Of a DNA stretch of 64,000 nucleotides, positions 15,453-43,177 are shown piece after piece. The stretch is taken from contig CAJXCD010000006.1 in assembly GCA_913051545.1 (NCBI GenBank), forward strand, positions 3,680-67,679, read 5' to 3'. Within the stretch, counting starts at the first letter, position 1, and every line of letters begins with the position of its first letter. A program made the translations under genes and the position numbers. This DNA comes from an uncultured Chloroflexota bacterium (GTDB taxonomy: Bacteria > Chloroflexota > Dehalococcoidia > Lucifugimonadales > CAJXCD01). A model generated the notes under the pieces. The model saw nothing but the letters and a program-made list of their open reading frames with translations. It had not been told where the DNA came from and did no database searches.

Positions 15453-16706
15453 TTATTGAGCCATCTGCAGAATTAAATTAGCAATCCGTTGTTTAGAATT
15501 ACCATCAGAAGGGTTAATCCATTTCTCAACCAGTATTTCCCTTTGGTCTGTGAAAAGAGTCGGATCATTTAAGTAGAGACATATTTGTGAAATCAATTCT
15601 TTCCTATTATGTGTGACTGGTATCAATTGCTGCTCTAAAATAGGTTTAAAGTGTTTTATGAATGTTGAATCATGAAGTATGTCATCTGTGATTTCTGGTA
15701 ACACTTCGTTAAATCCAACGATAAGTGTCGGTGTGTCAAAAATAGCTGCTTCTATACCCATCGTTGATGCAGGTGTTACAACTACGTCAGCATGATATAG
15801 AAGATTTGCAACTCCATTCACGTCCTCTCTAGTCATACTCCATCCCAGACTCCCTAGCCATCGTCGTGGCATATCCATATATAAACCATTTCTATCCGTA
15901 TATTTTGGATCTAGAAACGGGCCTAAAGAATCTCCAGGATGATTACGGCAACATATTTGTGTGTCAACAGGGAAATCGCCGTTTTCTTGAGCATGGAGCA
16001 ATATATCTAACCAATTTGTCTGGACATTTTGTAGCTTTGCACCTGCAGTTGCCAGGAGGATTAACTTTTTTGATGGATCTAATCCTAACCCAGTGAGATA
16101 TTCATCTCGATCTAATATGACTGATGGATCAAAATAGGGGTCGAATTGTGGTGTGCCTACTACTTCTATCTGGGAGTCTCGATAAAGTTCTAAATCTATT
16201 GCTTCAAGTTTATTTATTTCATTTGGTACAGCAAGTGCATCGACTCTGCAGTACAGTCTTTTGAGAATGTTATCCCAACTACGTATCAACCCTAATGTTT
16301 TAATGCCATTTTTCTTCGAATTTAGATATATCGGTATTTCTCTTTCCTTGTTAGTATCCGAAAGAACGATTAAATTTGGAGGTAATTCTTTAAACAGGTT
16401 ATCGTAAATAGAATTAGGCATAAAGAATCGCTCGAGGATTGTCCATAGTTTGACCATCCACTCATATTTTAGAGCCCACCTCGTAGTTATGATTGCCTTC
16501 TGCAGTCTGGTGAGCACAAATTCTTCTGAATGCCGAATAACAACTCTGTCCCTTGAAAATTCTTTTAGGAAAGCTTGATCCTTACTAGCGGGAGTGAGTA
16601 ACACTATCTTAATGTCTGGGTCTTCCAATAGATGCTCAAGTACACCTAGCCTTAGTAGGTCGCGGACTCTCGAGTCCATAGTAATTGTCATGTATATATT
16701 TTTCAT
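15453..16706 (-). CDS. uncharacterised GT-B-like protein (paralogue A); candidate CMP-ulosonic-acid transferase
   Basis: 417 aa. It shares 'GLDPSKKLI', 'ADVVVTPASTMGIEAAIFDTPTLIVG' and a C-terminal 'DGNS..RI' with the CDS at 32002-33519. The ST.G.EA motif resembles KpsC/KpsS-type Capsule_synth proteins. Confidence 0.45.
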   Translation of the reverse strand: MKNIYMTITMDSRVRDLLRLGVLEHLLEDPDIKIVLLTPASKDQAFLKEFSRDRVVIRHSEEFVLTRLQKAIITTRWALKYEWMVKLWTILERFFMPNSIYDNLFKELPPNLIVLSDTNKEREIPIYLNSKKNGIKTLGLIRSWDNILKRLYCRVDALAVPNEINKLEAIDLELYRDSQIEVVGTPQFDPYFDPSVILDRDEYLTGLGLDPSKKLILLATAGAKLQNVQTNWLDILLHAQENGDFPVDTQICCRNHPGDSLGPFLDPKYTDRNGLYMDMPRRWLGSLGWSMTREDVNGVANLLYHADVVVTPASTMGIEAAIFDTPTLIVGFNEVLPEITDDILHDSTFIKHFKPILEQQLIPVTHNRKELISQICLYLNDPTLFTDQREILVEKWINPSDGNSKQRIANLILQMAQ

Positions 16707-16776
16707 CTAATTAAATAAGTGATGTTAGTATTTATACGACACTAACACACAAATAATTCACTGTTTCTCAAGTCGA

Positions 16777-18552
16777 TCACCAAAAATTTAAGTACTGTGC
16801 GAATCCGTTGACACTATGTTTTCTTCTGTACTTTTGTATTTCGGATTCAAGGTCAATGGCTTTAGTTTTTTGAATAATAGATTCGAAGTATTTCGAATCT
16901 CTTCTGGCAAAAATATAAAATTGTTTATCGGATTCGGGATTATTTATATCTCTCACCAAATGATATTCCTCAAATCTTTTATCTAGCATTAGCAAGTATG
17001 ATGTGAGGCCAGTGCCTATTTCATAGGGAGGTATGGAATTCAAGTGCATATACGGCGCCACATATTCCTGAATTTCTCCTTGGTCAGGAATGTATTTGCC
17101 GTCAATTGCTGAGAACTTTATAGAGTGTGTGATTATGATATCAGGATTGGCTTCATATATGACGTTGGAGTTCCATCCACTGTAGGCTATTTTTTCAGAT
17201 GCAAGTCCATAGAAATCTATGTGACGATATCCCGTTATGTAGGGTAGTGCACCTGCTTCCCCAGTGGCTAAAACTACGTTCTGAGGATTATCATCTAAAT
17301 TGTTTATGGAATTTGCTATAGCTGGGTTTATGACACGATTAGAGAAGTAATTCTCCAAGCCAACAATTTGCTCATATCTATGGCCCGTATCTACAGACCA
17401 TATCAATACTAATATAAGAATGCTCACGTGTACCCATTTCCCTATAGTAGTTTTGTAGTTACTAAAATTAGATACATATTGAGGTTGTCGATTAATTATT
17501 AGACGTATGTATTCACATACCACAAGTAAAAATGCAGGAAGAAATGGTAAAAGGAACCGATCTGCGATGCCGACAGTTGGTCGTACGGTGGTAAAATAAA
17601 TCAACTGAATCAGTACTGCAATTAGTACAGCGAGATAGATGGGTCTAATTTTAATTTTTAAGGCCCACATCGTTACTATCAGTGCAATCCCTCCCATGAT
17701 TGATCTTGATACGAATTGCAACACGTACGAGAGTCCATTAGAGGTCCACCAAGTTGTAAGGTCAGTCCCCTGTTTAAACATAAAAGGTGTTGGTACTATG
17801 TGACCGAAATACAGAGATTTTGCCGTCCAATAGGTTACTGATGGGATTACTGTCGCAATAAGAGCGTGTAAACAAATATTCATCCATCGGTCTCTGTTTA
17901 CCACAAGATATCCCATAAACAACGCTCCGGAGAATACCAACGATTCCGGCCTAACCATAAATGTCACAGTTATAGAGCCTAAATACAAATATTCTAGCTT
18001 GTAGTTTCTATTCGCTATAATACTCAGCGTGGCCTGAGTTGTTACAAAGAGCATGTAGAAAGACGTCTCCATGCCCGCTATAGCGTGCACAAATATGTAG
18101 GGATGTGTCGATATCGCGATAATGGCAAAAAATGATACCAAGGGACTATCTTTTGGATTCCCTTGCCAGAAGAGTATGCCCATAGTGAATAAGCTTGAGA
18201 ATATTCCAAGACACTTCGCTGCATCTAATGTTTCAAGACCAAGGAAATTTAATAGAGCAAGTGATATAACCCAAAGGAAGGAAGTAAAACCTTCAAGGGG
18301 GCTTTCGTCAGTGGAATTCCATCTTATTCCGTTTCCATCAGAAAGATTGTCTGCGAACCGAAAGCTGATATATGAATCATCTAGTGTCCAGTCCCAGTGA
18401 AATAAGGACAAGGTTAAGAAATTTGTAACGACTAAAATTACTCCAAATATCTGCCAGACCATACTTTTTTTGGTAGTCCGAGAAATAATGGACAAGGTAT
18501 TTTGTATTAAAGGGTTGTTCATAGGTATTTGGTTAGAAATTTTGAATGTCAT
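16777..18552 (-). CDS. GT-C-fold-like polytopic membrane glycosyltransferase (ArnT/PMT-like)
   Basis: 591 aa. About 11-13 hydrophobic helices occupy the first ~390 aa. 'DDSYISFRFADNL' follows TM1 (acidic first-loop motif). The C-terminal ~200 aa are soluble. Confidence 0.55.
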   Translation of the reverse strand: MTFKISNQIPMNNPLIQNTLSIISRTTKKSMVWQIFGVILVVTNFLTLSLFHWDWTLDDSYISFRFADNLSDGNGIRWNSTDESPLEGFTSFLWVISLALLNFLGLETLDAAKCLGIFSSLFTMGILFWQGNPKDSPLVSFFAIIAISTHPYIFVHAIAGMETSFYMLFVTTQATLSIIANRNYKLEYLYLGSITVTFMVRPESLVFSGALFMGYLVVNRDRWMNICLHALIATVIPSVTYWTAKSLYFGHIVPTPFMFKQGTDLTTWWTSNGLSYVLQFVSRSIMGGIALIVTMWALKIKIRPIYLAVLIAVLIQLIYFTTVRPTVGIADRFLLPFLPAFLLVVCEYIRLIINRQPQYVSNFSNYKTTIGKWVHVSILILVLIWSVDTGHRYEQIVGLENYFSNRVINPAIANSINNLDDNPQNVVLATGEAGALPYITGYRHIDFYGLASEKIAYSGWNSNVIYEANPDIIITHSIKFSAIDGKYIPDQGEIQEYVAPYMHLNSIPPYEIGTGLTSYLLMLDKRFEEYHLVRDINNPESDKQFYIFARRDSKYFESIIQKTKAIDLESEIQKYRRKHSVNGFAQYLNFW

Positions 18553-19459
18553 TAGTATCTACCCTATTCAGCATAAACGGATTTGATTTAGGCGAATTCC
18601 ATCCGGGGATTGTAGTGACTGCTGTGCTGAATCCAGCCTCCTGAACGTATTTAGGGGTAGAATTACTAAGAGAAGGAGCTTTCCCATAAGGATAGCAGAA
18701 GGGAAGTGGGTCTGATTTAGATAAATTAGTACGTAAGGATTCGTAACATGTTGACAGATCGAGACGTTGTTCTGTTGGTTCAAGATCGGAAAATGCTATA
18801 TGTTTGTGAGAGTGTCCGCCGACTGACATACCGTGATTAGTTAGTTCTTTTAGTTTATCCCAACCCATGTAAAGATTGTCAGAAAATGACTCTTCACGAC
18901 CAAACACCTCGTTAAAGAGTATGCCTAGTATTTGTTCCCTTACATCAATTGGAAGGCCATAGTTCATGTGATATTTATACATTCCTATTTCAGGTTCATC
19001 CCACTTATACACTTGTTTAACTATGTCCATGTCAGGTTGCAATTCTAGATTAGGGGCAACTTCCTTTAATACTTGTGAGAAACGGGTATATAGATCATTA
19101 AATTTTAGTTCGGCCATTAGGAAATGGTTCTTGTGCACGGAGGCTACCAAACGAGAGTTTATACAAGATGTGATCGTGTAGAAGGCAGCAGATATTTTTT
19201 TCTCCATTAGAATCGGTAGCACATTTTCATAATGATCGATTAAACCATCGTCGAATGTTAGATAACACAGATTTTTTTCCGGAAAATACTTGCCTGATAA
19301 GAATGAAATGATACTGTCGTGCGATGCCATCTCAAACTTAGATTGTAGTAGCTCGACTTGCTTATTGAAATTATCTGTGAGAATACCTTTGATACGTGGG
19401 AAGTCTGTTTGTGGGAAATCTCTCACATAATGGTAAGTAACAAGTATGAGTTGGTTCAT
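18533..19459 (-). CDS. polysaccharide deacetylase (NodB homology / CE4)
   Basis: 308 aa. Contains 'LTFDDGLIDHYENVLPIL', 'SAAFY' and 'GGHSHKH'. Confidence 0.85.
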   Translation of the reverse strand: MNQLILVTYHYVRDFPQTDFPRIKGILTDNFNKQVELLQSKFEMASHDSIISFLSGKYFPEKNLCYLTFDDGLIDHYENVLPILMEKKISAAFYTITSCINSRLVASVHKNHFLMAELKFNDLYTRFSQVLKEVAPNLELQPDMDIVKQVYKWDEPEIGMYKYHMNYGLPIDVREQILGILFNEVFGREESFSDNLYMGWDKLKELTNHGMSVGGHSHKHIAFSDLEPTEQRLDLSTCYESLRTNLSKSDPLPFCYPYGKAPSLSNSTPKYVQEAGFSTAVTTIPGWNSPKSNPFMLNRVDTNDIQNF

Positions 19460-19474
19460 AAATCTATTGCCTAT

Positions 19475-20626
19475 TTAATTAGGACGGTCCTGATCACTGT
19501 CGGATTTAGTGATATAAAAGTTGTCTCTATGATTTAATTTCCCAGTGTGTTCCCGCAAGTCGGTCGATATCCAAAAAGCGCCTAATAGTTTGGATGTGTC
19601 ACTGTCTAGAGGTTGGAATTTTATTGGGAATGGTGGATCGTTATGGGCAGAGCTATTGATTTTAAACCCAATTCGGGTTAGTGGCTTGGCAAATCTTTTA
19701 GAAGTACAAAAATAATCTGCAAATGCTATTCCATTATCCAGCCCATATCTCGTTATGTTTTCGGTCAGGATTTCTTCAGACTCTGGAGAACTCATAAATT
19801 CCAATACGCGAAGTATTTTCTCCTCACGATTCATAACCTGTTCGATTCTGTATACGGCTAGACCGAGCACATTATTAGAAGATTTTTCTCGTGCCACTGC
19901 AAATTCATATTTAAAGGATGGATGTTCAGCGTATCGCCAATTTAAATAACTAGAATCTCTAGCTGGTCCGATAGTTATAGGAGCAATTTTATTGAACCAG
20001 AATTCATCCCAATCTGAGCTGAAACGGTTACTCTCTAATGATAACTTGATATTTGTGTGTTTCGTATAACTTGATTCCTTAGCTAACGAATCGAGTCTGG
20101 GAATCTGAGCAGACATCGTTTCATGAGTAGAATCGGTTATCAAATTTCGAGTATCTTTATAATTTAGTACTTGCACCCACCTTGGGACTTCAGGTAACAT
20201 TTCAAATCCGAACGCATGGTATATATTTTGTGCTGTTTGGTTTAGACCGATGGCGAAAATCGCCTCAAATCCCATATTTCTGGTAGCCCACAATAGTCGC
20301 ATTCCTGCACCAGTATTTCGTGCTTCAGGGGTCACGAACCATTGAGATAGCCAACAACCAGGAAATATTTCTCCTGACACATTTAGATTGAATGGGATTA
20401 GGCCGAGCATTCCAACAATATTTCTATTTACTGATGCTAATAAGATTGTTGGCCCATTGGAATTCCATTGGGGTAACCTGTGTGTATCGTACTGCCACAG
20501 TAGCAGATTCCCATCTCTTGACAGTATGTGGCGGGTGTTCCAATAATCATCAATGAATTTTTGGAGGTGTGGAATGTCAGCACGGGTACATTGGTCGATG
20601 GAAATTTGTGTATTCAATGTTGACAT
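19475..20626 (-). CDS. GNAT-family acyltransferase with C-terminal extension
   Basis: 383 aa. 'VTPEARNTGAGMRLLWATRNMGFEAIFAIGLNQTAQNIYHAFGFE' is a GNAT motif A region. The extra ~200 aa C-terminal domain is unassigned. Confidence 0.7.
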   Translation of the reverse strand: MSTLNTQISIDQCTRADIPHLQKFIDDYWNTRHILSRDGNLLLWQYDTHRLPQWNSNGPTILLASVNRNIVGMLGLIPFNLNVSGEIFPGCWLSQWFVTPEARNTGAGMRLLWATRNMGFEAIFAIGLNQTAQNIYHAFGFEMLPEVPRWVQVLNYKDTRNLITDSTHETMSAQIPRLDSLAKESSYTKHTNIKLSLESNRFSSDWDEFWFNKIAPITIGPARDSSYLNWRYAEHPSFKYEFAVAREKSSNNVLGLAVYRIEQVMNREEKILRVLEFMSSPESEEILTENITRYGLDNGIAFADYFCTSKRFAKPLTRIGFKINSSAHNDPPFPIKFQPLDSDTSKLLGAFWISTDLREHTGKLNHRDNFYITKSDSDQDRPN

Positions 20627-20654
20627 GTATGTTTTAGAATTAGCGATTAACTAG

Positions 20655-22001
20655 TCAGTTGATGATTTTTCGCAGTTTCTTAAAACGGTTTCCGTGTTGA
20701 ATATCTTTAGACAAAGAAACCTTCACAGGTATTTTGTACCGTGGAAGTCGGGCAGTGCAGTAGGACTTTAACCGTTTACTGAACCCAGGCAAATCTTCAG
20801 GTGATACGAGCCTAACTGTAGCACAAACTATATTACCCATTATCGCGTTTTGTTCACCATATACTGTTACTTCTGCTATGTTGTCTAGTTCTTGGATAAT
20901 GTTTTCTACCTCCGCAGGAAATACTTTCTCTCCACCAACATTTATAATGTCCGATTTCCTACCGAGGAATTTCATGTATTCACCATCTACCTCCACGATA
21001 TCTCCAGTATCAAGCCATCCATCTTTGGTGAATGGGTTGGGAGAATTCAAATACCCCAACATGGCTGATTCTGCTTTAACTTGCAAGATGCCATCAATAA
21101 CACGAGTTTTAAATCCTTCGCCTCCAATCTTTACCCATAGTGAATTGGAGCTTTTTGATTTTGATCTTAAAACTCCTAATTCAGTCATACCGTAAGTTTG
21201 TAGCAGCCGTATTTTCGGGAACAGTTCATGAAGTTTGGTAAGGGTGCTTTGAGGCATAGGTTCTGTTCCATAGGTGATAGTCTTCAGGGATGAAATGTTG
21301 TATCGATTATAAGCTTCACTTAAAAGCATTAAGTTTATGAACGTGGGAGTTGTTGGTAGCAAATCTACGTTGTGTTTTTCTATTGCATTCAGAACAACAT
21401 CAGGGGTGCGATCAATAGGTGTAACTATACATCCGCAATTTGAGAGTTGATATAGCATTGTATTAATTCCACCCAAGTGATCGTATAGCAAGAAAGTTAT
21501 CGCACGCTGTCTTTGACGTCTAATTTGGAATTTCTTTAGTAAACTGTACAAATCTTGAACAATAGCTTTACTTTCTCCGGTAGAACCCGAGGAAAAAACT
21601 ACTACTCCGGGGTGATTTAGTTTCCGCAATTTCTGATAAATATTGTGGTTGACTGACCGACATAATTTCTCCAATGTCACATTGTCTGAGTCATCTATTT
21701 TAAAGATTATTTCCACCTGAGATGTATTAATAAACTCAGTCTTTTTAGGCCCTGTGGAGGGTGTCAGAGGTACTAGGATACAGCGAGATTGTGTAAGAGC
21801 TAGGAAAAGAGCTATAGAATTTGGGGAAAAGTCCGCTTCTAGCGCGACTATTGTACCCTTGGGAATTTTTTGAACCTCAATCACTGACTGCCAGTGATTG
21901 AGGCGATCAATTAGCCAGCCGTATGTATATGATTGGTCGTTCCATATTACGGCTTCTGTGTCGCAGTTTTCTTCAAATCGTTTCAGCAAGAAATCAATCA
22001 T
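20655..22001 (-). CDS. AMP-dependent synthetase/ligase (adenylate-forming acyl-ACP/CoA ligase)
   Basis: 448 aa. Contains 'VVFSSGSTGESKAIV', 'YGMTELG' and 'GWLDTGDIVEVDGEYMKFLGRKSDIINVGGEKVFPAEVE'. Confidence 0.9.
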   Translation of the reverse strand: MIDFLLKRFEENCDTEAVIWNDQSYTYGWLIDRLNHWQSVIEVQKIPKGTIVALEADFSPNSIALFLALTQSRCILVPLTPSTGPKKTEFINTSQVEIIFKIDDSDNVTLEKLCRSVNHNIYQKLRKLNHPGVVVFSSGSTGESKAIVQDLYSLLKKFQIRRQRQRAITFLLYDHLGGINTMLYQLSNCGCIVTPIDRTPDVVLNAIEKHNVDLLPTTPTFINLMLLSEAYNRYNISSLKTITYGTEPMPQSTLTKLHELFPKIRLLQTYGMTELGVLRSKSKSSNSLWVKIGGEGFKTRVIDGILQVKAESAMLGYLNSPNPFTKDGWLDTGDIVEVDGEYMKFLGRKSDIINVGGEKVFPAEVENIIQELDNIAEVTVYGEQNAIMGNIVCATVRLVSPEDLPGFSKRLKSYCTARLPRYKIPVKVSLSKDIQHGNRFKKLRKIIN

Positions 22002-22720
22002 TATCCAAAAACGCCCCCGAGGTATACGACCTGTCCTGTTACCATCTCGCTTTCTGGTTTAATAAAAAAATTAATTAAGTTGGTTACATCAGAGAAATCA
22101 CCGTATCGTTTTATAGCATGACGTTTTAGGAAGTCGTCCAATTTTTGTTTAGGGACAGATCGTATTAAATCGGTTTTAATTGCAGGTGGCCCTACTGCAT
22201 TTACAGTAATTTTGAATTCAGCTAATTCCTTGGAAAGTATTTGAGTGAGTTGCACAATTGCCGCTTTTGACGAGGCATATGCTGCCTCTCCTTCAAGTTT
22301 TAGAGGAACTGCTCCGGTCGCAAAATTTATGATCCGTCCATAGTTTACGTAACGCATTAATTTTGCAGATTCTCTACTTACTAGAAAAGTTCCAACAACG
22401 TTGGTTTCGAAGATATTGCGTACGGTATCAATAGGTGTGAGAATACTGTGGTTCATTGAAGCTACTCCGGCATTGTTAATTGTTATGTCTAACTTCCCAT
22501 AATCTCTACGAATTTCTGTAAACATTGCGCGGACAGCTTTTTCATCAAATACATCTAGAATAAAATGACGGTAGTTTGCAGAATAGAAGTCAGTTTTACT
22601 CCGGCTACATCCTATTACATGTAGTCCTTGATCAACATAGTATTCAGCGAGGTGTCTACCGATACCTTTGCTGGTGCCGGTTATTATCATTACTTTGGTG
22701 TCAGTCTTTTTCATTTTCAA
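22001..22720 (-). CDS. short-chain dehydrogenase/reductase (FabG-like)
   Basis: 239 aa. Contains 'ITGTSKGIGR', 'NNAG' and 'YASSKAA'. There is a TAATG overlap with the ligase gene. Confidence 0.9.
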   Translation of the reverse strand: MKMKKTDTKVMIITGTSKGIGRHLAEYYVDQGLHVIGCSRSKTDFYSANYRHFILDVFDEKAVRAMFTEIRRDYGKLDITINNAGVASMNHSILTPIDTVRNIFETNVVGTFLVSRESAKLMRYVNYGRIINFATGAVPLKLEGEAAYASSKAAIVQLTQILSKELAEFKITVNAVGPPAIKTDLIRSVPKQKLDDFLKRHAIKRYGDFSDVTNLINFFIKPESEMVTGQVVYLGGVFG

Positions 22721-23009
22721 TCACAAGAACCGATATATATTCACTTAGGTTGCGTATAGTTGTGAATGGGCTTTTAGTCTGGGACATTGCTCTCTCATCT
22801 GCAATTGTTATGGATATTCCCAATTGATCCTGTATTTTTTCTTCTGCCCTAACGATTAAACTGACTAGACCTAGTGAGTCCAATTTGCCAGATTGTCCAA
22901 ATAGTGGTGATTCTAACTGGACGTCTATGTGTTGGTCGAAGGGGAGTTCCTCATTTAGTTCTTTTATGACCTCAAATAGTATCTGTTCTATTTGATCTTT
23001 GTTAGGCAT
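22701..23009 (-). CDS. acyl carrier protein
   Basis: 102 aa, acidic, with the 'GKLDSLGLVSLIV' phosphopantetheine-attachment (DSL) motif. Confidence 0.85.
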   Translation of the reverse strand: MPNKDQIEQILFEVIKELNEELPFDQHIDVQLESPLFGQSGKLDSLGLVSLIVRAEEKIQDQLGISITIADERAMSQTKSPFTTIRNLSEYISVLVIENEKD

Positions 23010-23048
23010 GATTACTGCTCCTAGCTTATAGTATATTAATTATGGGAG

Positions 23049-23774
23049 TTAAGTTTGGCTAGTTTGATATAGAAGCATTTCTACAAGGCTAATATCGTTT
23101 TCGTTATCGATGTTCACAGATCTAGTACTTGGCATGATATATGGTCTTATGAAATCTCCGAACAGGCTGTCATTATTCATTATGACGTTCCGTTTAGTGA
23201 TATAAATCGCTCCGTTTCGTAAGTATGCTTTTGGCCTGAGGTCCTGTCGTCGACCTTCCCATTTTTGTGTCGGCTCACCAAGGTATGGTAAAAGTCTGCC
23301 TTTAGCTATTCGCTTTACAAGTCTTGGATGATGAGATGGTATTTCTTCAACACTTATGATTGAGTCACAATTAATATCACTTGTTAGTTTCAGTGCCTGT
23401 ATTATGTCCTCTTTGTTACGTAGAGGTGTAGTCGGTTGAAGCAATAGTACCCAGTCTATTTGAGTTCCGTCCTGATTTTCCACGAAAGAAACAGCATGCT
23501 GTACTAGCGGTAGGGTAGGGGCTTCGTCAGAGGCTAAGCTTATTGGCCTTCGGAAAGGAACTTCAGCACCTAATTTAACCGATACATCTGCAATTTCTTC
23601 GTCATCTGTACTTACTATTATTCGGTAGATATAATCTGAAAGTTCTAGTGCAGGTTCAATAGTATATGCAATTAGAGGCTTACCACAAACATTACGCAGA
23701 TTTTTTCTAGGAACACCTTTTGATCCTCCACGCGCAGGAATAATTGCTAATACTTTCTGATTATTTTTTCCCAT
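23049..23774 (-). CDS. acylneuraminate (CMP-nonulosonate) cytidylyltransferase, NeuA family
   Basis: 241 aa. Contains 'LAIIPARGGSKGVPRKNLRNVCGKPLIAYTI'. Confidence 0.9.
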   Translation of the reverse strand: MGKNNQKVLAIIPARGGSKGVPRKNLRNVCGKPLIAYTIEPALELSDYIYRIIVSTDDEEIADVSVKLGAEVPFRRPISLASDEAPTLPLVQHAVSFVENQDGTQIDWVLLLQPTTPLRNKEDIIQALKLTSDINCDSIISVEEIPSHHPRLVKRIAKGRLLPYLGEPTQKWEGRRQDLRPKAYLRNGAIYITKRNVIMNNDSLFGDFIRPYIMPSTRSVNIDNENDISLVEMLLYQTSQT

Positions 23775-24926
23775 TCAGTATGTTATACGTTTTTCTATGG
23801 TTAAAGGGATAGTTGCCAACAAGTCAGCGATGTGCTGTCCGGCATTCCCTTCGCCGTATAGGTTGCTCGACGGTAAACTGTTTTTGTTTATTTGATTTCG
23901 TGTCGCGGATACTATTGACTTTTTGTTATACGTAGCATCTGTCAAATTTGGACCTCTGTCTCTGCCAGTTTGCCGACTTCCTATATTTACCACAGGTAAG
24001 CCTAGGAAGGAACACTCTCTCACTCCCGCACTGGAGTTTCCGATAAGACACATGGAATTGACTAAAGTTCGGAGAAAATCTTCAGGGGTCATATTTTTGA
24101 AAAAATATACAAAAGGGATTTCATTAGTTTCCCTAAACTGCCGAATCCCTTTAGAAATTAAATCTGACCCTGCATCGACATTTGGCCAGAACCAGAGAGT
24201 AGGTAATGCCAATTCTTTGACAGCATTTAATGTGGCTCTGATCTGTGTTAGCGAGTCCTCGTATTCAGTGGTTACAGGATGTTGTAAGACTATGATGTAC
24301 CCTGAGGCGAGATCAACTATATTACCGACGCCGCCATACCTGGAAAATATATCGAATTGGGGTTTAGATTCGATACTTATTCGTTTGGCGAGGTCTATTG
24401 AAGGACACCCTGTGACAAAAATTCTGTCAGGGATTTCACCCATTTGTTTGACTCTTTGCGCGGCAATGTCGTTTGCCACAAAATGAACATCAGAGAGCTT
24501 TGTTACTGCGTGTCTAACTTTTTCATCAATTGACCCGCTAACTTCACCACCTTGTATGTGTGCGACTGGTATATTCATGTATGAAGCTGCTATAGCAGTG
24601 GCTATCGTTTCATATCTGTCTGCTACACTTACTACTACATCAGGCTTCAATTTATCGAATGTGGTGGCGAGCTCTGTAACAGCTATTCCGGTTGACTTGG
24701 CCGCTGCTACAGGATTTTCTCCTTCGAGCACGACGTATACCTCAGCATCGGGATCAAATCCGTCAGATTTAATCACGTCTATTACAGGTCCGTAACGTTC
24801 TAGTAGGGCTGATGCTCCAACCACAAATTGCAGAATTAACTCGTCGTGGTCTCGCACCGCTTCCAGTAGGGTTTTAATCCTAGCATAGCTAGGGCGTGCA
24901 GTTACGACGACACATACTTTACGCAT
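23775..24926 (-). CDS. neuC: UDP-N-acetylglucosamine 2-epimerase, hydrolysing (NeuC/LegG type)
   Basis: 383 aa. 'IPVAHIQGGEVSGSIDEKVRHAVTKLSDVHFV' matches the hydrolysing subclass rather than the WecB type. It directly abuts the NeuA gene. Confidence 0.85.
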   Translation of the reverse strand: MRKVCVVVTARPSYARIKTLLEAVRDHDELILQFVVGASALLERYGPVIDVIKSDGFDPDAEVYVVLEGENPVAAAKSTGIAVTELATTFDKLKPDVVVSVADRYETIATAIAASYMNIPVAHIQGGEVSGSIDEKVRHAVTKLSDVHFVANDIAAQRVKQMGEIPDRIFVTGCPSIDLAKRISIESKPQFDIFSRYGGVGNIVDLASGYIIVLQHPVTTEYEDSLTQIRATLNAVKELALPTLWFWPNVDAGSDLISKGIRQFRETNEIPFVYFFKNMTPEDFLRTLVNSMCLIGNSSAGVRECSFLGLPVVNIGSRQTGRDRGPNLTDATYNKKSIVSATRNQINKNSLPSSNLYGEGNAGQHIADLLATIPLTIEKRITY

Positions 24927-24943
24927 TGTTCAGTATCGATCCC

Positions 24944-25912: not shown

Positions 25913-25939
25913 AGAATTCTCGAATACAAAAAATTAGAG

Positions 25940-26923: not shown

Positions 26924-26975
26924 GGCAGCCCTCTACATATGTATGTTTGTGTGAGAAGTATATTAATTTATTTTT

Positions 26976-28031: not shown

Positions 28032-28041
28032 ATAATCACCA

Positions 28042-28917
28042 TCAAATTTTACCAATATATTTTCTAGGGTGCATTACAGTAGCAATCGAACTGGTTATTG
28101 GTCGTAGCTTTGGTTTACGATAGCCTAGTCTCATAAGCCCCTTGCTAAGTATACGTCTGTTCAAACGTCTGTTGAGACCATTAGTAGATAATTTCCAAGT
28201 CGAATCATATATAGAGTATCCAGATGCTATTTTGCCAGAAAGTTCACGATTCCTTTTAATTTCAGGTCCATTCCATATCCAATCAGTGCCCCCTGGAACT
28301 GATTCCCACCCGTGGTTCTGGTGAAACACTTTTGATACTTCAGTGGCGTCTATAGTTGGTACTCCCTTCGACAGAGCACCGTATATTAGCCACTCATCCC
28401 AGCAACCTCTACCGATTGCGAATGGTGGTATAGATGGCCATGTACCTTTAGTGAAAGCAAAGTAATCCATACCTTGGCGCAAATCACTTTCTAAGGATTG
28501 TATTTTGTATATTTCTTTCCAGGTGGTCTGGTTACTGAAATCAAATTCAGTATCTATATTAATACCCCATGATAGGCCTACCATAAGGAAAGGTTGTTTT
28601 TTAATTGATTTCAAGGCAAGTATGAAATCTTTAGTGAGTATTATATCTGCGTTTACGTAAACAATAATGTTATTAGATGCTGAGATCTCAGCAGATTCAA
28701 ATAAAGAATTTACCAAAGGGGTTCCATGCTCATTACATAGTACGTCAGGAACATGCTTGACCCCAAAGTCTGCGGCACATTGAGATGTACCCTTATCATC
28801 ACCGATTAATATCACCTCTACATCTGGATCTAGATTTACCCAACTTGATATTGCATTTCGTTGGATAACTTCGAATTTGTTTACGAAAGGCCTAGGAGTA
28901 GTAAATATAGTGATCAT
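28042..28917 (-). CDS. putative GT-A-like glycosyltransferase of an uncharacterised family
   Basis: 'MITIFTTPRPF..IQRNAISSW ... VILIGDDKG ... YVNADIILTKDF'. I chose ATG 28917, which sits 1 nt after the upstream TGA, instead of the overlapping 29019 start. Confidence 0.45.
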   Translation of the reverse strand: MITIFTTPRPFVNKFEVIQRNAISSWVNLDPDVEVILIGDDKGTSQCAADFGVKHVPDVLCNEHGTPLVNSLFESAEISASNNIIVYVNADIILTKDFILALKSIKKQPFLMVGLSWGINIDTEFDFSNQTTWKEIYKIQSLESDLRQGMDYFAFTKGTWPSIPPFAIGRGCWDEWLIYGALSKGVPTIDATEVSKVFHQNHGWESVPGGTDWIWNGPEIKRNRELSGKIASGYSIYDSTWKLSTNGLNRRLNRRILSKGLMRLGYRKPKLRPITSSIATVMHPRKYIGKI

Positions 28918-28918
28918 C

Positions 28919-29629
28919 TCATAATTCTTGAGAAGGGTTTTGTGACGTTTGTAGTACGAAGCAACCAATACCATATAGGTCTCTAACGGGCTTACGAGAT
29001 AGAGCTGTTTCTTTATCAACCTTACCCCAAAGGTTGTGGTCGTCTTTGTTCCAATATTCTTCTTTCAATGTTTCCCACCCGGATAGTAATAATGGTAGTC
29101 TGTCTCGTCCGTAGACTCTATGTAGAGGTGGGAACACTGAATCTTGACCAATTGGGATGGTAAGAATCATTTTGCCAGTTGGTTTGATAAGTTTTAGCAG
29201 TAGTTTCATTACCTGGAAGTCACCTTCTTCATTTGAAGTATTAACACCGTAACGCCCTACTAAACCAACATGTTCAATCGAAGAACAGTTTATGATTAGG
29301 TCAAAGTTGTCCGGTGGTATGTTGTGGTCGAGGATGTCACCCTGTACAAATTCTATGTTGGAGTGTTTATAAAACCATTTTGGGGTTCTAAGATCGATGC
29401 CTGATATTTCATATCCACTCATGGCAGCGGATAGCCATAGATGACTATTCCCTGTTCCAAAATCTAGAGCTTTACCAGGGCCTGGTGGCATGTGCGCTGC
29501 GACCCAGGAATTTTCTATAGCTCTATCCCCAGCTAGAGTGACAGTAGGTACAGGTAATTTCCGTTCAATGTGCATTGCTAGGCCTGAAACCTTGAACAGA
29601 AATAGTCTGAAAAGTTTAACGATGAACAT
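28919..29629 (-). CDS. class I SAM-dependent methyltransferase
   Basis: 236 aa. Contains 'ALDFGTGNSHLWLSAAMSGYEISGIDL' and 'DLIINCSSIEHV'. Confidence 0.7.
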   Translation of the reverse strand: MFIVKLFRLFLFKVSGLAMHIERKLPVPTVTLAGDRAIENSWVAAHMPPGPGKALDFGTGNSHLWLSAAMSGYEISGIDLRTPKWFYKHSNIEFVQGDILDHNIPPDNFDLIINCSSIEHVGLVGRYGVNTSNEEGDFQVMKLLLKLIKPTGKMILTIPIGQDSVFPPLHRVYGRDRLPLLLSGWETLKEEYWNKDDHNLWGKVDKETALSRKPVRDLYGIGCFVLQTSQNPSQEL

Positions 29630-29699
29630 GGTTTACACTCAGTTTCTCTATTGAATTCCAGGGTCTAATTATTACACCATTTTACAATTGGATATGTAA

Positions 29700-31070: not shown

Positions 31071-31103
31071 AGAGGCTCCTTAATTTTGTGAAAGAAATAT
31101 GAA

Positions 31104-31937: not shown

Positions 31938-32001
31938 CCAATCTCCCTGTTATTTCAGATAAGCGAGCTATTTAACACGCTATATATAATACAAATATAG
32001 C

Positions 32002-33519
32002 CTAGGTCAGTGAATTGGAAGTAGCCAAATCACTTATGTATTGAGCGATCCTGTCAGCACTATTACCATCAATATATGTACACTCTTGGATGGCAAAATC
32101 ACGACGTTGCTTGGAGTGTAGTTTAGGATTATCAACGTAAGTATTGATTCCTTTTATCATTTCATCATAGTTCATAGCCACAATACTGGTATTTGAATCG
32201 ACTATTCTTTCATGCGTTGGCCAGTCTAATGCGTCCATGATAGACATTAACCGACCTTCTTTCCACTCGCTAGGCGGATCAATCGCTACACTCACTATTG
32301 GTGTATCATTTAAGGCTGCTTCTAGTACCATAGTTGAAAACAGTGTTACAAAAACGTCACTATATTTAAGTAGGGACGATACGTTAATCATATCATTCTT
32401 CGTGGTTGCATTTGCTACAGCATCAGTACTGAAATCAGGAGTATTGATATGGACATCAGGTATTGATCGGGCAATATCCTTATATATTTCAACCTCTTTG
32501 AGAGTTTGCAAATCTGATTCAATGGAATCGTTCCGTGGCTTCTTGAAGTGCGAGGGATGGAGACGAATTAATAGCTGACTAGGGTGATTGAATTTATCTT
32601 GTGCAATTGCTTGGGCTAAAGCTTGTACTATTCCAACGTTTGAAGATATCCCTACAAATGTGCAACCGAAAGAAATTAGTTTTTTGGATGGATCAAGTCC
32701 ATTCTGGACTAGATATTCTTTGCAACTCATTGGTGGTTCGCTTTTTTTGTAGTGATCAAAATATGCTACGCCTCCAACATCGATAGATTTGGCAGATACG
32801 TCGCATCCGTCGACAAGTTCATTTTTCTGAATCTCAGACCAAGTTCTTATTCGGTCTGGCATTGCAAGTGGTAATCCCTGACTCGCGGTATGATCCCATC
32901 CAACAAGAATGGCAGTGGATGGCACTCCTCGTTTGCTGGCTTCTCTTATGATTACCTCCTCTCCAGGCCACCATCCAGGACTATTTGTAACTACTAAAGA
33001 AGGCCGATATTGAGTAAATGGATCGTATCCGAGCGATTTAATTGGTCTGGCAGAAGCAAATTTACGAAATATTTGACGTGATATTTGCGAACGTTGAAGG
33101 ATACTAGCTAATAGGTTCCAGATAGGTAAGAGAAATCTAAATTTCGTATGGTTCCATTGCCTATTTTGGTGAGTCTGTACATCACGAAACACCGATCGAT
33201 TCATTTTGTTACTTACGCCAGCCATGCGTAGGTACTGTACAGTTGATTCCATTATCGTTACTAAAGTTGAATATAGCCATCCCGATTTACTTGTATGTTG
33301 ACACATACTGAGATCACTCAACTGTACAGATGGCAAAGAAAGCTTCAGATCATTTTCAACTTTGTTACTGTTAGGGACCAATGCAACTACTTTGATTCCA
33401 GATTTTATGAGATTGGCAATTATTCCAGTATGAAAAAAATAGCGTAATCCCGTGCCAACAGATGTGACAATCAAAACAGTAATCGAATCTTCTTTGTTAT
33501 TCTTGTTTATGCTATTCAT
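32002..33519 (-). CDS. uncharacterised GT-B-like protein (paralogue B); candidate CMP-ulosonic-acid transferase
   Basis: 505 aa. 'GLDPSKKLI', 'SDVFVTLFSTMVLEAALNDTPIVSV' and 'IDGNSADRIAQYI' parallel the CDS at 15453-16706. Confidence 0.45.
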   Translation of the reverse strand: MNSINKNNKEDSITVLIVTSVGTGLRYFFHTGIIANLIKSGIKVVALVPNSNKVENDLKLSLPSVQLSDLSMCQHTSKSGWLYSTLVTIMESTVQYLRMAGVSNKMNRSVFRDVQTHQNRQWNHTKFRFLLPIWNLLASILQRSQISRQIFRKFASARPIKSLGYDPFTQYRPSLVVTNSPGWWPGEEVIIREASKRGVPSTAILVGWDHTASQGLPLAMPDRIRTWSEIQKNELVDGCDVSAKSIDVGGVAYFDHYKKSEPPMSCKEYLVQNGLDPSKKLISFGCTFVGISSNVGIVQALAQAIAQDKFNHPSQLLIRLHPSHFKKPRNDSIESDLQTLKEVEIYKDIARSIPDVHINTPDFSTDAVANATTKNDMINVSSLLKYSDVFVTLFSTMVLEAALNDTPIVSVAIDPPSEWKEGRLMSIMDALDWPTHERIVDSNTSIVAMNYDEMIKGINTYVDNPKLHSKQRRDFAIQECTYIDGNSADRIAQYISDLATSNSLT

Positions 33520-33531
33520 TACTTTAGAGAT

Positions 33532-34401
33532 TTAAGTTCGGCGTAGCTTTTTCATGACAGATCTTTCACTATCATATACCCGTTTTACCCCGTCACCCAT
33601 AGCGGATTCTATGACACGGATATCTCGTACGAGTCGGTGTAGTCCCTGAGGTTCTATCGATGCTGACTGGTCAGAACCCCACATCGCCCTATCCAGAGTA
33701 ATGTGACGTTCTACGAAGCACGCCCCTAGTACAACGGCTGCAATAGTAGTTTGTAGCCCCGTCTCGTGTCCTGAATATCCAATAGGGCAGTCAAATTTGT
33801 TTTGGAGAGACTTAATGGTATTAAGGTTGAGTTCTTCTGCCGGACACGGATAGGTGCTTGTACAGTGACATATGACCAAATTATCTTTGTCTAGTAGTGA
33901 TACAGCATGATCTATTTGGTCCATAGTTGACATACCTGTGGAAATTATAATTGTCCTTTTCGTTGAATGTAATTTTGTTAAGAGGCTGTCATCAGTTAAG
34001 CATGCTGATGCTATTTTGTACCCAATTGGTTCAAATTGCTCCATGAAGTCTACGGATTCTTCATCCCAACAAGAACTGAACCAAGAGATATTATTTTCCT
34101 TACAATATTTGTCTATTTCATGGTACTCTTGTTTTCCGAATTCCACCTTGTGCCTGTAGTCAATGTAGGACATGATTCCCCAAGGTGTTTCACGTGGAAT
34201 GTCGCGTTGTTCGGGGGGGACACAAAGTTCAGGGGTCCTTTTTTGAAATTTTACAGCATCACAATTAGCTGAAACGGCAATGTCAATCAATTGCTTCGCT
34301 ACGTTGATATCGCCATTGTGGTTTATGCCTATTTCAGCAACTATATAGGTAGGAATACCTTCCCCTATAATTTCTTTCCCCCAATTGACTTTGTTGCTCA
34401 C
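33532..34401 (-). CDS. NeuB-family synthase (module 2), short form without SAF-like C-terminus
   Basis: 289 aa. Contains 'PTYIVAEIGINHNGDINVAKQLIDIAVSANCDAVKFQKR'. It ends about 60 aa earlier than the other two NeuB homologues. Confidence 0.85.
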   Translation of the reverse strand: MSNKVNWGKEIIGEGIPTYIVAEIGINHNGDINVAKQLIDIAVSANCDAVKFQKRTPELCVPPEQRDIPRETPWGIMSYIDYRHKVEFGKQEYHEIDKYCKENNISWFSSCWDEESVDFMEQFEPIGYKIASACLTDDSLLTKLHSTKRTIIISTGMSTMDQIDHAVSLLDKDNLVICHCTSTYPCPAEELNLNTIKSLQNKFDCPIGYSGHETGLQTTIAAVVLGACFVERHITLDRAMWGSDQSASIEPQGLHRLVRDIRVIESAMGDGVKRVYDSERSVMKKLRRT

Positions 34402-35594
34402 TATGATTGGACCTCCAGTTTCCGAATCACTAATTCAGAAATTTCTCGCACAGCACCACGTCCGCCATCTTTTGATAGCACAATATTCGCTTGAGATATT
34501 ACATCGGGATGTGCGTCATTGACTGCGACGCCACATCCCACTTCACGCATACATTCCAGATCGTTAATGTCATTCCCTACGTATACTAAATCTTTTAGAC
34601 ATAGTTCGTTTTCATTTGCCCATATTTTTAGTGCATCCAGTTTGTTATCAACTCCAGTAAAGCAAGGGATACCAAGTTTTTCACACCTAGTTTTTACGAC
34701 ACTATTAACTTCTGACGATATCACTATGATTGGGAGTCCCGTGGATCTCAATTTTGATATACCCATACCATCGCTTCGATCACAAATGACAGATTCACAA
34801 CCATTTTCTGATACCAGAACTAGGTTGTTTGTCAAAACACCATCGAAGTCAAAGACTAGTCCAGATACATGGTTTGGGAGCACTTGTGTACTTATTCGCA
34901 CTTTTTGTTCAACTATACGTGTCTCAGCAAGAATAATGTCACTAGGTTCATCTATTTCAAGACAACGTTCAGTAGGCATGACGTACATGGCAGTTGTTCC
35001 TACGAATCGATTTTTGGACTTCTGGAATTCATGTACTTTCATTACATACACAGCACCTGTTTCAAGGAATTGAGGGCTTAGATCTTGTCGAAGCAGTCGT
35101 TTATCTTTAGAGTGATTAATCCCGACGGAATTTCCACTTCGATTTTTACTCCACAAGAAATAGTGGAATGGTGTTACGGATAATGCCGAATCAGCATTAT
35201 CGTTGATAAGAGCGTCTACAGTCCCATCGATGTCTTCTGCTAAGGTGAGGGGTGACGTGCACTGAAGGAAAATCAATATTTCCGGGACGTATCCTTCTGT
35301 TTTTTTCAAGTGATCTAGAGTATGCAAGAGAGCCGATTCTGAAGAATCTTTATCGCCACTGATCTCTGAGGGGCGTTTAACTATATCGGCGCCATATAGA
35401 TTTGCCACTTCTGCGATTGTGTCGTCGTCGGTGGAGACAACAATTCGAGGTGCACATTTCGCTTTTTTAGCAGCCTGGATACTGTAAGCAAGAATAGGTT
35501 TCCCATCTAACGGTACAATATTCTTGCCTGGTATACTTTTTGATCCTCCCCTCGCCGGGATTACACAAAGTATTTCCATTAGATTCGTGTCCAT
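34401..35594 (-). CDS. bifunctional NeuA-type cytidylyltransferase / KdsC-type HAD phosphatase
   Basis: 397 aa. The N-terminus has 'VIPARGGSKSIPGKNIVPLDGKPILAYSI'. The C-terminus has 'LVFDFDGVLTNN ... VYVGNDINDLECM ... GVAVNDAHP' (HAD motifs I and IV, KdsC-like). Confidence 0.85.
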   Translation of the reverse strand: MDTNLMEILCVIPARGGSKSIPGKNIVPLDGKPILAYSIQAAKKAKCAPRIVVSTDDDTIAEVANLYGADIVKRPSEISGDKDSSESALLHTLDHLKKTEGYVPEILIFLQCTSPLTLAEDIDGTVDALINDNADSALSVTPFHYFLWSKNRSGNSVGINHSKDKRLLRQDLSPQFLETGAVYVMKVHEFQKSKNRFVGTTAMYVMPTERCLEIDEPSDIILAETRIVEQKVRISTQVLPNHVSGLVFDFDGVLTNNLVLVSENGCESVICDRSDGMGISKLRSTGLPIIVISSEVNSVVKTRCEKLGIPCFTGVDNKLDALKIWANENELCLKDLVYVGNDINDLECMREVGCGVAVNDAHPDVISQANIVLSKDGGRGAVREISELVIRKLEVQS

Positions 35595-35707
35595 ATCCTC
35601 ATGCTAATTCTCCTCTACTACGCTTACTTATTATCCAACGCGTAGATAAATAATGAATTTTTCCCGACTTAGGTAACTCATCATACTTTCGCTGTCTTTT
35701 CGTTTCT

Positions 35708-37162
35708 TTATGTAACATTTGAAGGCGCTATAACGATTGACTCTGATTGGTATGGTGCTATAAGGTCCTTTTCCTTCACGGTTGACACTTCCACAGGATC
35801 CAACGCAGATGTTTCGTTTATTAGACTGGAAGAAATCAGTGGTTCAACTAGGTTTTCAACGTCCGATAAACTAAACTTCTTTTCTGTATATCGATCTGTA
35901 AATCCTATTGGCTTTACAGTTTTAAATTTTGAAAATGACAGTTGTGTAGGGAGATTCAAGCTTAACCGAAGATGTCTTGCAACTTTCGCGACATTTCTGC
36001 GAGTACCAATAAAATTTTCGTGTAGGCCATAAGCATGTTCTTTGCATAAAGACCTTTTAGGGGAAGTCTGGCTTTTACTTAACATCTCAATAATTTTATC
36101 TGAAACTCTTCGATGAGAATTCCCGTCAACTTTGTGGAACCACTTATCTATGACCGTTTTCTGTTTGTTTTTTACTTCTTGGGGGACATCGAACTCCCCA
36201 TTTATTATTGAGCGTAGAGTTTTCACTAAAATGTTCTCCGAATCACAAGGTACGCTCATAGCTTCAGCCGACTCTAATAATGGCCATGATTCAATCCACC
36301 TCGGGGACAGCGCAGGTACCCCACCTAGTGTTGCATCGATTGCGGTAGAGCAATTCCTTTGAATAACGGCTGAAGCGCGTAATATCCAGCCCGATATATC
36401 TCCATATTTTATTACGTGAAGATTGTCGTTTTGTATCATCCCGTCATATCCACGTATGTTTTCGAAGGGATGAGGGCGGTATACGAATGTGACTTCAGGA
36501 AAAGATGAGGCTAATGAGTTAGCAAGTTGAATTAGCTGTGACATTGTTGCCTTTTGGATGTTTTGACGCTCAATGTATTCATCCCGTTTAAATCCATAAG
36601 TTCTATCTGCTGCATTGATTATAGATTCCGGGGTCGAAAATTGCGGATTTGCTAGTCCAGCTTTACTGCTGATTAGAACCATCGGTTTTGGGTATTCGTT
36701 AGCGTAAAGTGAAAACTGTTTAGAAGCTCTATTCCAAGGATTTTTGTAAAGATCGAATCTTGGAGATCCTGTGACTGTTATTTGTTTCTTGCTATACCAG
36801 CATCGTTGCTCGGCGATTTCGGCTAGTTGGGGTCCCCAGGTAAAAAAACCTTTGACCTTATTACGAAGGTCTGTATCTTCAGGTAGTGTTAGTTCGTAGT
36901 GATCCCAGTTTGCCCAGATGCCTTCTGTGTCCATCACACCGATTTGTATGTTAGCCTCTACGAGTTGCTTAGCGAATTCTTGGATATTTTTACGCAGGTA
37001 GTTAAGTAATACGAAGTCTGGGGCGAGGTGCCAGACCTCACGCTCGCGCTTATTAAATGGGACTAGATAACAAGTGACTCCACTTTTGCAGAGTCTTAGG
37101 GCAAGTAGGACTGCACCAGGGAGATCTCTATATGGGTGATCTACTATTAGTGATACTCGCAT
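35708..37162 (-). CDS. uncharacterised GT-B-like 'surface carbohydrate biosynthesis' protein (paralogue C, more divergent)
   Basis: 484 aa. 'ASAVIQRNCSTAIDATLGGVPALSP' and 'VDGNSHRRVSDKI' echo paralogues A and B. There is a TAATG overlap with the LmbE-like gene. Confidence 0.4.
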   Translation of the reverse strand: MRVSLIVDHPYRDLPGAVLLALRLCKSGVTCYLVPFNKREREVWHLAPDFVLLNYLRKNIQEFAKQLVEANIQIGVMDTEGIWANWDHYELTLPEDTDLRNKVKGFFTWGPQLAEIAEQRCWYSKKQITVTGSPRFDLYKNPWNRASKQFSLYANEYPKPMVLISSKAGLANPQFSTPESIINAADRTYGFKRDEYIERQNIQKATMSQLIQLANSLASSFPEVTFVYRPHPFENIRGYDGMIQNDNLHVIKYGDISGWILRASAVIQRNCSTAIDATLGGVPALSPRWIESWPLLESAEAMSVPCDSENILVKTLRSIINGEFDVPQEVKNKQKTVIDKWFHKVDGNSHRRVSDKIIEMLSKSQTSPKRSLCKEHAYGLHENFIGTRRNVAKVARHLRLSLNLPTQLSFSKFKTVKPIGFTDRYTEKKFSLSDVENLVEPLISSSLINETSALDPVEVSTVKEKDLIAPYQSESIVIAPSNVT

Positions 37163-37878: not shown

Positions 37879-37920
37879 CTATGACCTCGTGGCGCTAACT
37901 AAATTAAAGTTATCAATTAT

Positions 37921-38955: not shown

Positions 38956-39058
38956 CTCGAATCAATATTTTTCTTGAACCCCAAAAAAATCATTTAAATT
39001 CGTGGTGCAAAATAGTTATTTTTGGCATAATAAGAGCTATAGGCAACTTCAGGATAAG

Positions 39059-42417: not shown

Positions 42418-42437
42418 TATATCCTCCTTGAAATTTG

Positions 42438-43175: not shown

Positions 43176-43177
43176 AG

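Follow-up and report, generated by a model that had tools for sequence, protein, structure and literature searches.

Three TagB-like GT-B proteins beside nonulosonate gene modules of a Chloroflexota bacterium as candidate CMP-nonulosonate transferases

To our knowledge, bacterial transferases of nonulosonic acids (NulOs), such as pseudaminic acid (Pse), legionaminic acid (Leg), ketodeoxynonulosonic acid (Kdn) and their derivatives, are scarce beyond the classical sialyltransferases, the Maf and FlmG enzymes acting on flagellin and the KpsS-type enzymes. Here we examine three candidates, termed A, B and C, encoded in a 64,000-nucleotide stretch (the window) of contig CAJXCD010000006.1 from an uncultured Chloroflexota bacterium. 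From the letters and open reading frames (ORFs) alone, the original prediction had described them as three paralogous proteins resembling glycosyltransferases of the GT-B fold, one per nonulosonate module, and as candidate new transferases using NulOs activated with cytidine monophosphate (CMP). The comparisons below indicate that they probably are CMP-nonulosonate-dependent glycosyltransferases of a TagB-like kind, acting on a glycan assembled in the cytoplasm and exported by an ATP-binding cassette (ABC) transporter.

The closest described enzymes are those of Tannerella forsythia. When Tanf_01245 or TFUB4_00887 is deleted, the terminal Pse5Am7Gra or Leg derivative is gone from the S-layer O-glycan, while the fully modified CMP-sugar is still in the nucleotide-sugar pool, and neither enzyme makes up for the loss of the other (PMC5420450). 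Their orthologue in strain FDC 92A2 is BFO_1060 (Tomek et al. 2017, PMC5420450). The authors noted a TagB-like domain and, as in sialyltransferases, D/E-D/E-G and HP motifs, and called an in vitro assay still lacking (PMC5420450). No assay or structure appears in the titles or abstracts of later papers mentioning Tanf_01245. TagF-like enzymes need two invariant, essential histidines, according to a study of TarL (PMC10901376). H300 of TarL, stacked on W299, is the base, H433 touches the alpha-phosphate and helps CMP departure, and E497 binds ribose (PMC10901376). In Bacillus subtilis, Leg is transferred without any need for SpsB, although this TagB-like protein is encoded beside a Leg pathway (PMC7439481).

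All three predicted coding sequences, and the motifs quoted for them, are present. They lie on the minus strand, as do nearly all genes of the window. A (15453-16706) is an ORF of 417 aa; its database copy has 412 aa, implying the second ATG (M6, at 16691) as the start instead of the ORF start at 16706. B (32002-33519; 505 aa) carries an extra helical insertion at about residues 81-157, and C (35708-37162; 484 aa) has a GT-B core with a C-terminal extension of about 120 aa. The proteins are soluble, a transmembrane segment being found in 0/3. The motif 'GLDPSKKLI' occurs in A and B. A shared block reads DVVVTPASTMGIEAAIFDTPTLIVG in A, DVFVTLFSTMVLEAALNDTPIVSV in B and IQRNCSTAIDATLGGVPALSP in C, and a C-terminal block reads 'DGNSKQRI', 'DGNSADRI' and 'DGNSHRRV', respectively.

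A and B align over 384 columns at 26% identity (BLASTP, E 2e-21), and the profiles of their families (46 members for A, 53 for B) match over the full length with a probability of 100% (hhalign, E 1.8e-67). The similarity of A to C is weaker (pairwise E 2e-6; profiles 98.7%, E 3e-16), and that of B to C is not significant pairwise (E 0.075), with profiles at 73% and E 3e-5. The similarity thus exceeds chance, and A and B are true full-length homologues, with C a more distant, separate subfamily of the same superfamily. Thus, the claim of three paralogues holds for A and B, but C has to be set apart.

Searches with the hidden Markov models of Pfam and NCBIfam place all three proteins in the TagB/TagF-like GT-B superfamily. 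The best or only curated match of each is NF046086, the BFO_1060 family glycosyltransferase model. C matches the whole 365-position model with 128 bits (E 4.7e-37), and A and B match it with 44.3 and 45.2 bits (E about 1e-11). The same model is matched by 46/46 A-family members (best E 3e-20) and 53/53 B-family members (best E 4e-16), whereas the TarB, TarF and TarL models are matched by a minority of the A/B-family members, and more weakly. C also passes TIGR04396, 'surface carbohydrate biosynthesis protein', with 275 bits against a cut-off of 125 bits over residues 4-413; with this model A reaches 15.5 bits and B has no match. C is a full-length member of that family, which has no assigned activity, and homologues of C bear its product name in JGI and NCBI records. 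The A and B clades are separate and uncurated, their members often annotated as 'CDP-glycerol glycerophosphotransferase' or 'hypothetical'. A literature search found no paper on TIGR04396, nothing related under 'surface carbohydrate biosynthesis protein', and no literature joining nonulosonic acid with glycerophosphotransferase. Calling the proteins new was an overstatement, as the kind is known genetically (Tanf_01245/TFUB4_00887/BFO_1060) and C falls in a curated family.

The NF046086 enzymes of Tannerella resemble A, B and C in the GT-B/TagB-like fold, in having no transmembrane segment, in their position beside CMP-NulO genes and in the acidic and H-P motifs. On the other hand, A and B each belong to a clade of its own in which the W-D pair is invariant, B has its helical insertion, and C has its C-terminal extension. 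The glycans differ as well, that of the window being ABC-exported and that of Tannerella belonging to the general O-glycosylation of Bacteroidota, and the donors in the window may include a Kdn-type sugar.

The original prediction had likened the ST.G.EA block to the KpsC/KpsS transferases (Capsule_synth, GT107). Such kinship does not hold. A, B and C have no Pfam match to Capsule_synth (PF05159) at E<=1, and a genuine Capsule_synth protein, taken from the related locus L003, aligns with the A-family profile over 37 columns with a probability of 3.9% (hhalign). A CMP-activated ulosonic acid donor, as proposed here, and a Rossmann-type nucleotide-binding helix are common to both groups, but there is no homology beyond the generic GT-B helix. 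The shared blocks (GxPxFD, 'KKLI' of Rossmann beta-1, S-T-x-x-x-E-A and D-G-x-S-x-x-R) turn out to be TagB/TagF-superfamily motifs, also found in TarL. When the Protein Data Bank (PDB) was searched with the three family profiles, the only match was a weak one to the C-terminal part of TarL (8va1; E 0.012-0.22, with 0.012 for the A family). Because the alignment with the A family takes in DGxSxxR, the ST...E helix and the GxPxxD hinge, the 'DGNS..RI' block, this helix and this hinge are assigned to the TagF superfamily.

Residue conservation within the families bears on the active site. In the A family, S143-W144-D145, G184..D189, R254 and T315 are invariant, and H256, S314, E319, D401-G402 and R407 are near-invariant, with H256-P257 invariant in the eight-sequence alignment A4. 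W208-D209, R319, H321-P322, S395-T396-M397 and E400 are invariant in the B family. In the C family, D78, R229-P230-H231-P232, T273-A274 and R352 are invariant and E80 is near-invariant. By motif position, the first catalytic His of TagF (W-H) is replaced by Asp in every A/B-family sequence (W-D), and it is absent from the C family, which has D-T-E-G (D78/E80) instead. The second His is retained, as the invariant H-P of the B and C families and the near-invariant H256 of the A family. From these alignments we infer an active site that keeps the CMP-binding half of TagF but has an acidic base, like that of GT-B sialyltransferases.

Two remote TagB-like proteins beside NulO genes show different states of the first motif. 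One, on the Bacillus thuringiensis plasmid pIS56-328 (locus L166, 8218-9621), keeps the TagF-type Q-H-G and adjoins pseC/pseG/pseH/pseI. The other, on a plasmid of Rhizobium sp. WL3 (locus L167, 8524-9918), has S-W-D-Q and follows neuB/neuC/neuA.

TagF-like enzymes (PF04464; TagB, TagF, TarF, TarL) have in common with A, B and C the GT-B fold, the CMP leaving group proposed here, the GxPxxD hinge, the S-x-x-x-x-E ribose helix, the His of H-P and DGxSxxR, and both kinds of system use ABC-transporter export. They differ in the W-H pair, which is W-D in A and B or D-T-E-G in C. In addition, A, B and C have no N-terminal polymerase domain, no genes for CDP-polyol supply were found with them, and the similarity is confined to the C-terminal domain. 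For the supply genes, TagD/TarD and TarI/J were looked for among 54 scanned ORFs of the window and in six related loci, and none was found, though they could lie elsewhere in the genome. The 54 ORFs comprise all minus-strand ORFs of at least 150 aa, a 102-aa ORF resembling acyl carrier protein (ACP) and the plus-strand ORF 57357-58130; 4/54 are without any family.

As predicted, the window contains no recognisable sialyltransferase: none of the 54 ORFs matches a GT38, GT42, GT52, GT80, Maf or Capsule_synth model. The GT-B sialyltransferases (GT38, GT52 and GT80) resemble A, B and C in the proposed CMP-NulO donor, the acidic base motif and the H-P motif. In A, B and C, residues resembling these motifs occur without a family-model match, and no such enzyme is among the top 50 structural matches described next.

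AlphaFold2 models of B and C were made from family alignments; A is homologous to B over its full length. Both models consist of two Rossmann-like domains and have high scores in the predicted local distance difference test (pLDDT; 93.7 for C, 91.6 for B) and in predicted template modelling (pTM; 0.93 and 0.90). Foldseek lists 281 PDB chains at E<=1e-3 for C and 318 for B, and the top 50 of each are all GT-B enzymes. By these models, and by the homology of A to B, the three proteins are predicted to have the GT-B fold, as originally suggested from sequence. The top ranks are occupied by UDP-GlcNAc 2-epimerases and GT4 enzymes (TM-score 0.45-0.69), and the TagF-like capsule polymerase (8a0m/8a0c) is at ranks 24-45 for C. 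KpsC/KpsS and sialyltransferases are not among the top 50 for B or C. A Glyphos_transf-type protein encoded near the C-like gene of L003 has no match in the PDB, so it does not form a bridge to the solved TagF structures.

The window has the three nonulosonate modules that had been claimed, with three NeuB-family synthases (26976-28055, 33532-34401 and 41350-42417) and three cytidylyltransferases resembling CMP-sugar synthetases (23049-23774, 34401-35594 and 42438-43175). Module 1 (23049-28055, minus strand) encodes the first NeuB-like synthase, a short-chain dehydrogenase/reductase (SDR; 25940-26923), a 2-hydroxyacid dehydrogenase (24944-25912), a NeuC-type hydrolysing 2-epimerase (23775-24926) and the CMP-NulO synthetase at 23049-23774.

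Module 2 (33532-35594, minus strand) is compact. It consists of the 289-aa NeuB at 33532-34401, which lacks the SAF domain, and the CMP-synthetase at 34401-35594, which is fused to a haloacid dehalogenase-type domain resembling KdsC and Kdn-9-phosphate phosphatase. It has no epimerase of its own. Its composition points to a route via a phosphorylated intermediate, probably Kdn-like. Homologues of the short NeuB in Anaerolineae and in the related locus L086 are 59-68% identical to it. This conservation, far above that of its neighbours, suggests that the Kdn-9-phosphate-like route is widespread in Chloroflexota.

Module 3 (37162-47698, minus strand) is of Pse type, its PseC (46499-47698) scoring above the equivalog cut-off. 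After PseC come a dehydratase-like SDR (45556-46494), a radical SAM protein (43915-45516; 533 aa), a WbqC-like protein (43178-43984), the cytidylyltransferase at 42438-43175 and the NeuB at 41350-42417. A sulfotransferase (40015-41244), a formyltransferase (39059-40018), a PseG-like protein (37921-38955) and an LmbE-type deacetylase (37162-37878) follow. Together, the radical SAM, WbqC-like, sulfotransferase, formyltransferase and LmbE-type genes imply that the nonulosonate made here carries unusual decorations, which may include sulfate or formyl groups.

B and C are closely tied to their modules. The short NeuB gene of module 2 is followed after 12 bp by the start of B, and the start of C overlaps the stop codon of the gene that ends module 3. 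A does not adjoin module 1, lying about 6.3 kb downstream of its cytidylyltransferase. The notion of one transferase per module is not a strict rule, as the locus L086, discussed below, shows.

The association with nonulosonate genes was followed in other genomes, as had been proposed, and it is very strong, so that this check, too, fails to refute a NulO donor. Among GTDB species genomes, B-like genes were found in at least 560 stretches. Of these, the best 80, taken for counts, are all from Chloroflexota and mostly from Anaerolineae, with cultured Anaerolinea, Leptolinea, Ornatilinea and Bellilinea among them. Of the best B-like loci, 49 have full 10-kb flanks, and a NeuB homologue is present in 44/49 and a CMP-synthetase homologue in 48/49. 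The arrangement of the short NeuB (59-66% identical) with the synthetase-phosphatase fusion is kept in the B-like loci. C-like genes were collected from 79 metagenome loci, and 26/29 of those longer than 12 kb encode a homologue of NeuB or of a CMP-synthetase. From the C-like gene to such a homologue the gap has a median of 225 bp, and 36/45 lie within 3 kb. CTP_transf_3 and/or NeuB were also found in 6/6 individually inspected contexts, often with Wzm/Wzt, and in two inspected contexts an A-like gene comes directly after the B-like gene. Since a 20-kb neighbourhood makes up well under 1% of a genome, simple reasoning, rather than a computed control, puts chance co-location far below the observed frequencies.

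Related loci compared with the window are labeled L001, L003, L004, L085, L086, L166 and L167. L085 and L086, unbinned metagenome contigs, are the closest syntenic relatives of the window, at 40-69% protein identity, with the order of a C-like gene, module 2, a B-like gene, methyltransferase genes, a gene of the 28042-29019 type, module 1, a membrane protein gene and an A-like gene. The module-1 gene order is repeated in both at 53-69% identity, and the A-like gene comes after the module-1 genes. The GC content is 40% in the window and 59-61% in L085 and L086; despite this large difference in composition, the cluster has kept its architecture. A strict cassette of one transferase per module was dropped, as the C-like gene of L086 has no Pse-type module in view. 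In L003 (a 3.7-Mb contig; 8410-9984 and 16879-18282), the C-like gene lies between Wzt and a Capsule_synth (KpsC/S-like) gene to one side and, to the other, a Pse-type operon followed by the Glyphos_transf-type gene. Thus, three different candidates for transferases of the CMP-donor type are found in one locus.

An export route is encoded in the same cluster, with Wzm at 52755-53615 and Wzt, carrying a Wzt_C cap-binding domain, at 51393-52751 (51393-53615 in all, minus strand). Homologous transporters adjoin A-, B- or C-like genes in L001, L003, L004 and L086. Export by an ABC transporter implies that the whole glycan is assembled in the cytoplasm. The Wzt_C domain, together with many methyltransferases, suggests that a capped chain terminus is recognised before export, as in some O-antigen systems. 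A membrane protein with a Wzy_C domain and 11 transmembrane-like segments (10462-12042, minus strand) is a probable ligase or oligosaccharyltransferase for the finished glycan. The cluster also encodes a Wzz/kinase-like protein, four GT4 enzymes and several methyltransferases.

In the mechanism that we propose, each of A, B and C would add a NulO residue, one or perhaps several times, to a lipid-linked glycan at the cytoplasmic face, with a CMP-NulO as donor. By gene position, the donor would be a modified Pse-type sugar from module 3 for C, a Kdn-like sugar from module 2 for B and a NeuC/NeuB-derived sugar from module 1 for A. The C-terminal Rossmann domain would bind CMP, with the His of R-x-H-P on the phosphate and the Glu of S-T-x-x-x-E on the ribose. 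The invariant acidic residue of the N-terminal domain, in W-D of A and B or D-T-E-G of C, may activate the acceptor hydroxyl, replacing the W-H of TagF. The finished glycan would leave via Wzm/Wzt and probably be ligated by the Wzy_C protein.

This assignment as CMP-nonulosonate transferases is the best-supported reading of the three proteins, in line with the original guess, and we hold it with more confidence for C than for A and B. It draws on NF046086 being the closest family and on the Tannerella knock-outs, which lose the NulO with the CMP-NulO pool intact. It also draws on the operon structure of B and C with modules 2 and 3 and on the linkage to NeuB and CMP-synthetase genes elsewhere, which extends across phyla. 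The window contributes the absence of CDP-polyol genes and of any other recognisable sialyltransferase among the 54 ORFs, and the proteins contribute W-D or D78-E80 in place of W-H with H-P kept, the GT-B fold and the lack of a transmembrane segment.

Several observations weigh against it. A, B and C all score under the NF046086 cut-off of 200 bits, as do 99/99 of the A/B-family members. B passes the Pfam model Glyphos_transf (PF04464) with 28.0 bits against a gathering score of 22.1 bits. The equivalence of W-D to the W-H of TarL is judged by motif position, not by structural superposition, and the Foldseek ranking, in which 2-epimerases and GT4 enzymes stand above TagF-like polymerases, does not point to one donor class. 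In L086, A-, B- and C-like genes stand against two NulO modules in view, and the C-like gene, found with tblastn, is without a nearby Pse-type module. In the literature searched, no in vitro activity was found for any such member, the Tannerella enzymes included. Finally, a conserved protein encoded directly upstream of the first NeuB (28042-29019, minus strand; probable start M36, about 290 aa) is as well associated with NeuB as the B family is.

This last protein enters into one alternative, in which A, B and C are glycosyltransferases of the same pathway using UDP- or GDP-sugar donors, adding either the sugar that accepts the NulO or a sugar onto the NulO, and the NulO itself is moved by another protein such as that of 28042-29019. 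The protein has no Pfam, NCBIfam or PDB match, either as a single sequence or as a profile. Its homologues occur in 66/80 Anaerolineae loci and adjoin NeuB or CMP-synthetase in L085 and L086 (53% identity), and GT-A-like features are seen by eye ('ITIFTxPKPF', 'YVNADIIL' and conserved His residues), so that it is a candidate for another NulO-related transferase, in addition to A, B and C or in their place. The surplus of TagB-like genes over modules in L086, the dispensability of SpsB for Leg transfer in B. subtilis, and the UDP-sugar users MshA and GlgM among the GT4 enzymes at the top of the Foldseek lists also favor this alternative. It is nonetheless unlikely, as the nearest family with genetic data transfers NulOs, the H-P (phosphate) and S-T-x-x-x-E (ribose) motifs of the CMP-releasing TagF enzymes are conserved, and for neutral sugars the cluster already has four ordinary GT4 enzymes.

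Quite improbable is that the three are TagF-type polyol-phosphate or sugar-phosphate transferases, using a donor like CDP-glycerol or CDP-ribitol and laying down phosphodiester units in a teichoic-acid-like, ABC-exported glycan. Assignment to such a family had been named beforehand as evidence against a NulO donor. What was found is the match of B to Glyphos_transf, with those of A (17.9 bits) and C (12.8 bits) under the gathering score, and with it come the weak TarL match of the A-family profile, DGxSxxR included, weak TarB matches in 13/46 A-family members and the parallel of ABC export with wall teichoic acid synthesis. The match of B, however, spans only model positions 250-365 of 367, the C-terminal third, which is the part that binds CMP or CDP; being the sole TagF-type match and weak, it does not refute a NulO donor. 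The equivalent of TarL H300 is Asp in all A/B-family sequences and absent in the C family, CDP-polyol synthesis genes are absent from the window and six related contexts, the BFO_1060 family is consistently a better match than TarB/F/L, and the linkage to NeuB and CMP-synthetase genes is tight. We consider it more improbable still that the proteins are GT-B-fold enzymes processing nucleotide sugars within NulO biosynthesis, as relatives of the hydrolysing 2-epimerases or of PseG. UDP-GlcNAc 2-epimerases do top the Foldseek lists, module 2 has no epimerase, and Epimerase_2 (PF02350) weakly matches B and some A-family members. This match is marginal in B (E 0.04, C-terminal 50 residues), though, NeuC and PseG-like enzymes are already encoded in modules 1 and 3, the related Tannerella knock-outs keep the CMP-NulO pool, and a Kdn-type module such as module 2 would need no epimerase.

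The TagB-like kind of NulO transferase, which rests on a single genetic study in Tannerella, gains from this locus three divergent candidate members that lie side by side and differ in their NulO context. New here are two large uncurated sister clades (A and B), their W-D signature and their close linkage to a Kdn-like module that is conserved in Chloroflexota. The W-D versus W-H signature might separate NulO transferases from polyol-phosphate transferases. We can conceive, tentatively and with some doubt, that the A/B clade is a distinct uncurated branch of the TagF superfamily, in which the change of His to Asp turned the scaffold of a CDP-polyol phosphotransferase into a CMP-ulosonate glycosyltransferase. 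The B family would in that case be the first transferase, or polymerase, dedicated to a Kdn-type sugar whose synthesis passes through a phosphorylated intermediate, and it would serve an ABC-exported glycan widespread in Chloroflexota. If confirmed biochemically, such functions would improve the annotation of many glycan loci of Chloroflexota and Acidobacteriota, and the enzymes would become available for making NulO glycoconjugates chemoenzymatically.

Between module 1 and A lies a set of probable N-acyl remodelling genes (18533-23009, minus strand), encoding the ACP-like protein (22701-23009), a FabG-like SDR (22001-22720), an AMP-dependent ligase (20655-22001), a GNAT protein (19475-20626) and a polysaccharide deacetylase (18533-19459). 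This cassette is absent from the syntenic relatives L085 and L086. Directly upstream of A is the gene of a 591-aa polytopic membrane protein (16777-18552, minus strand) with seven transmembrane-like segments and no Pfam or NCBIfam match. The protein (52% identity) adjoins the A-like gene upstream in the window as well as in L085 and L086.

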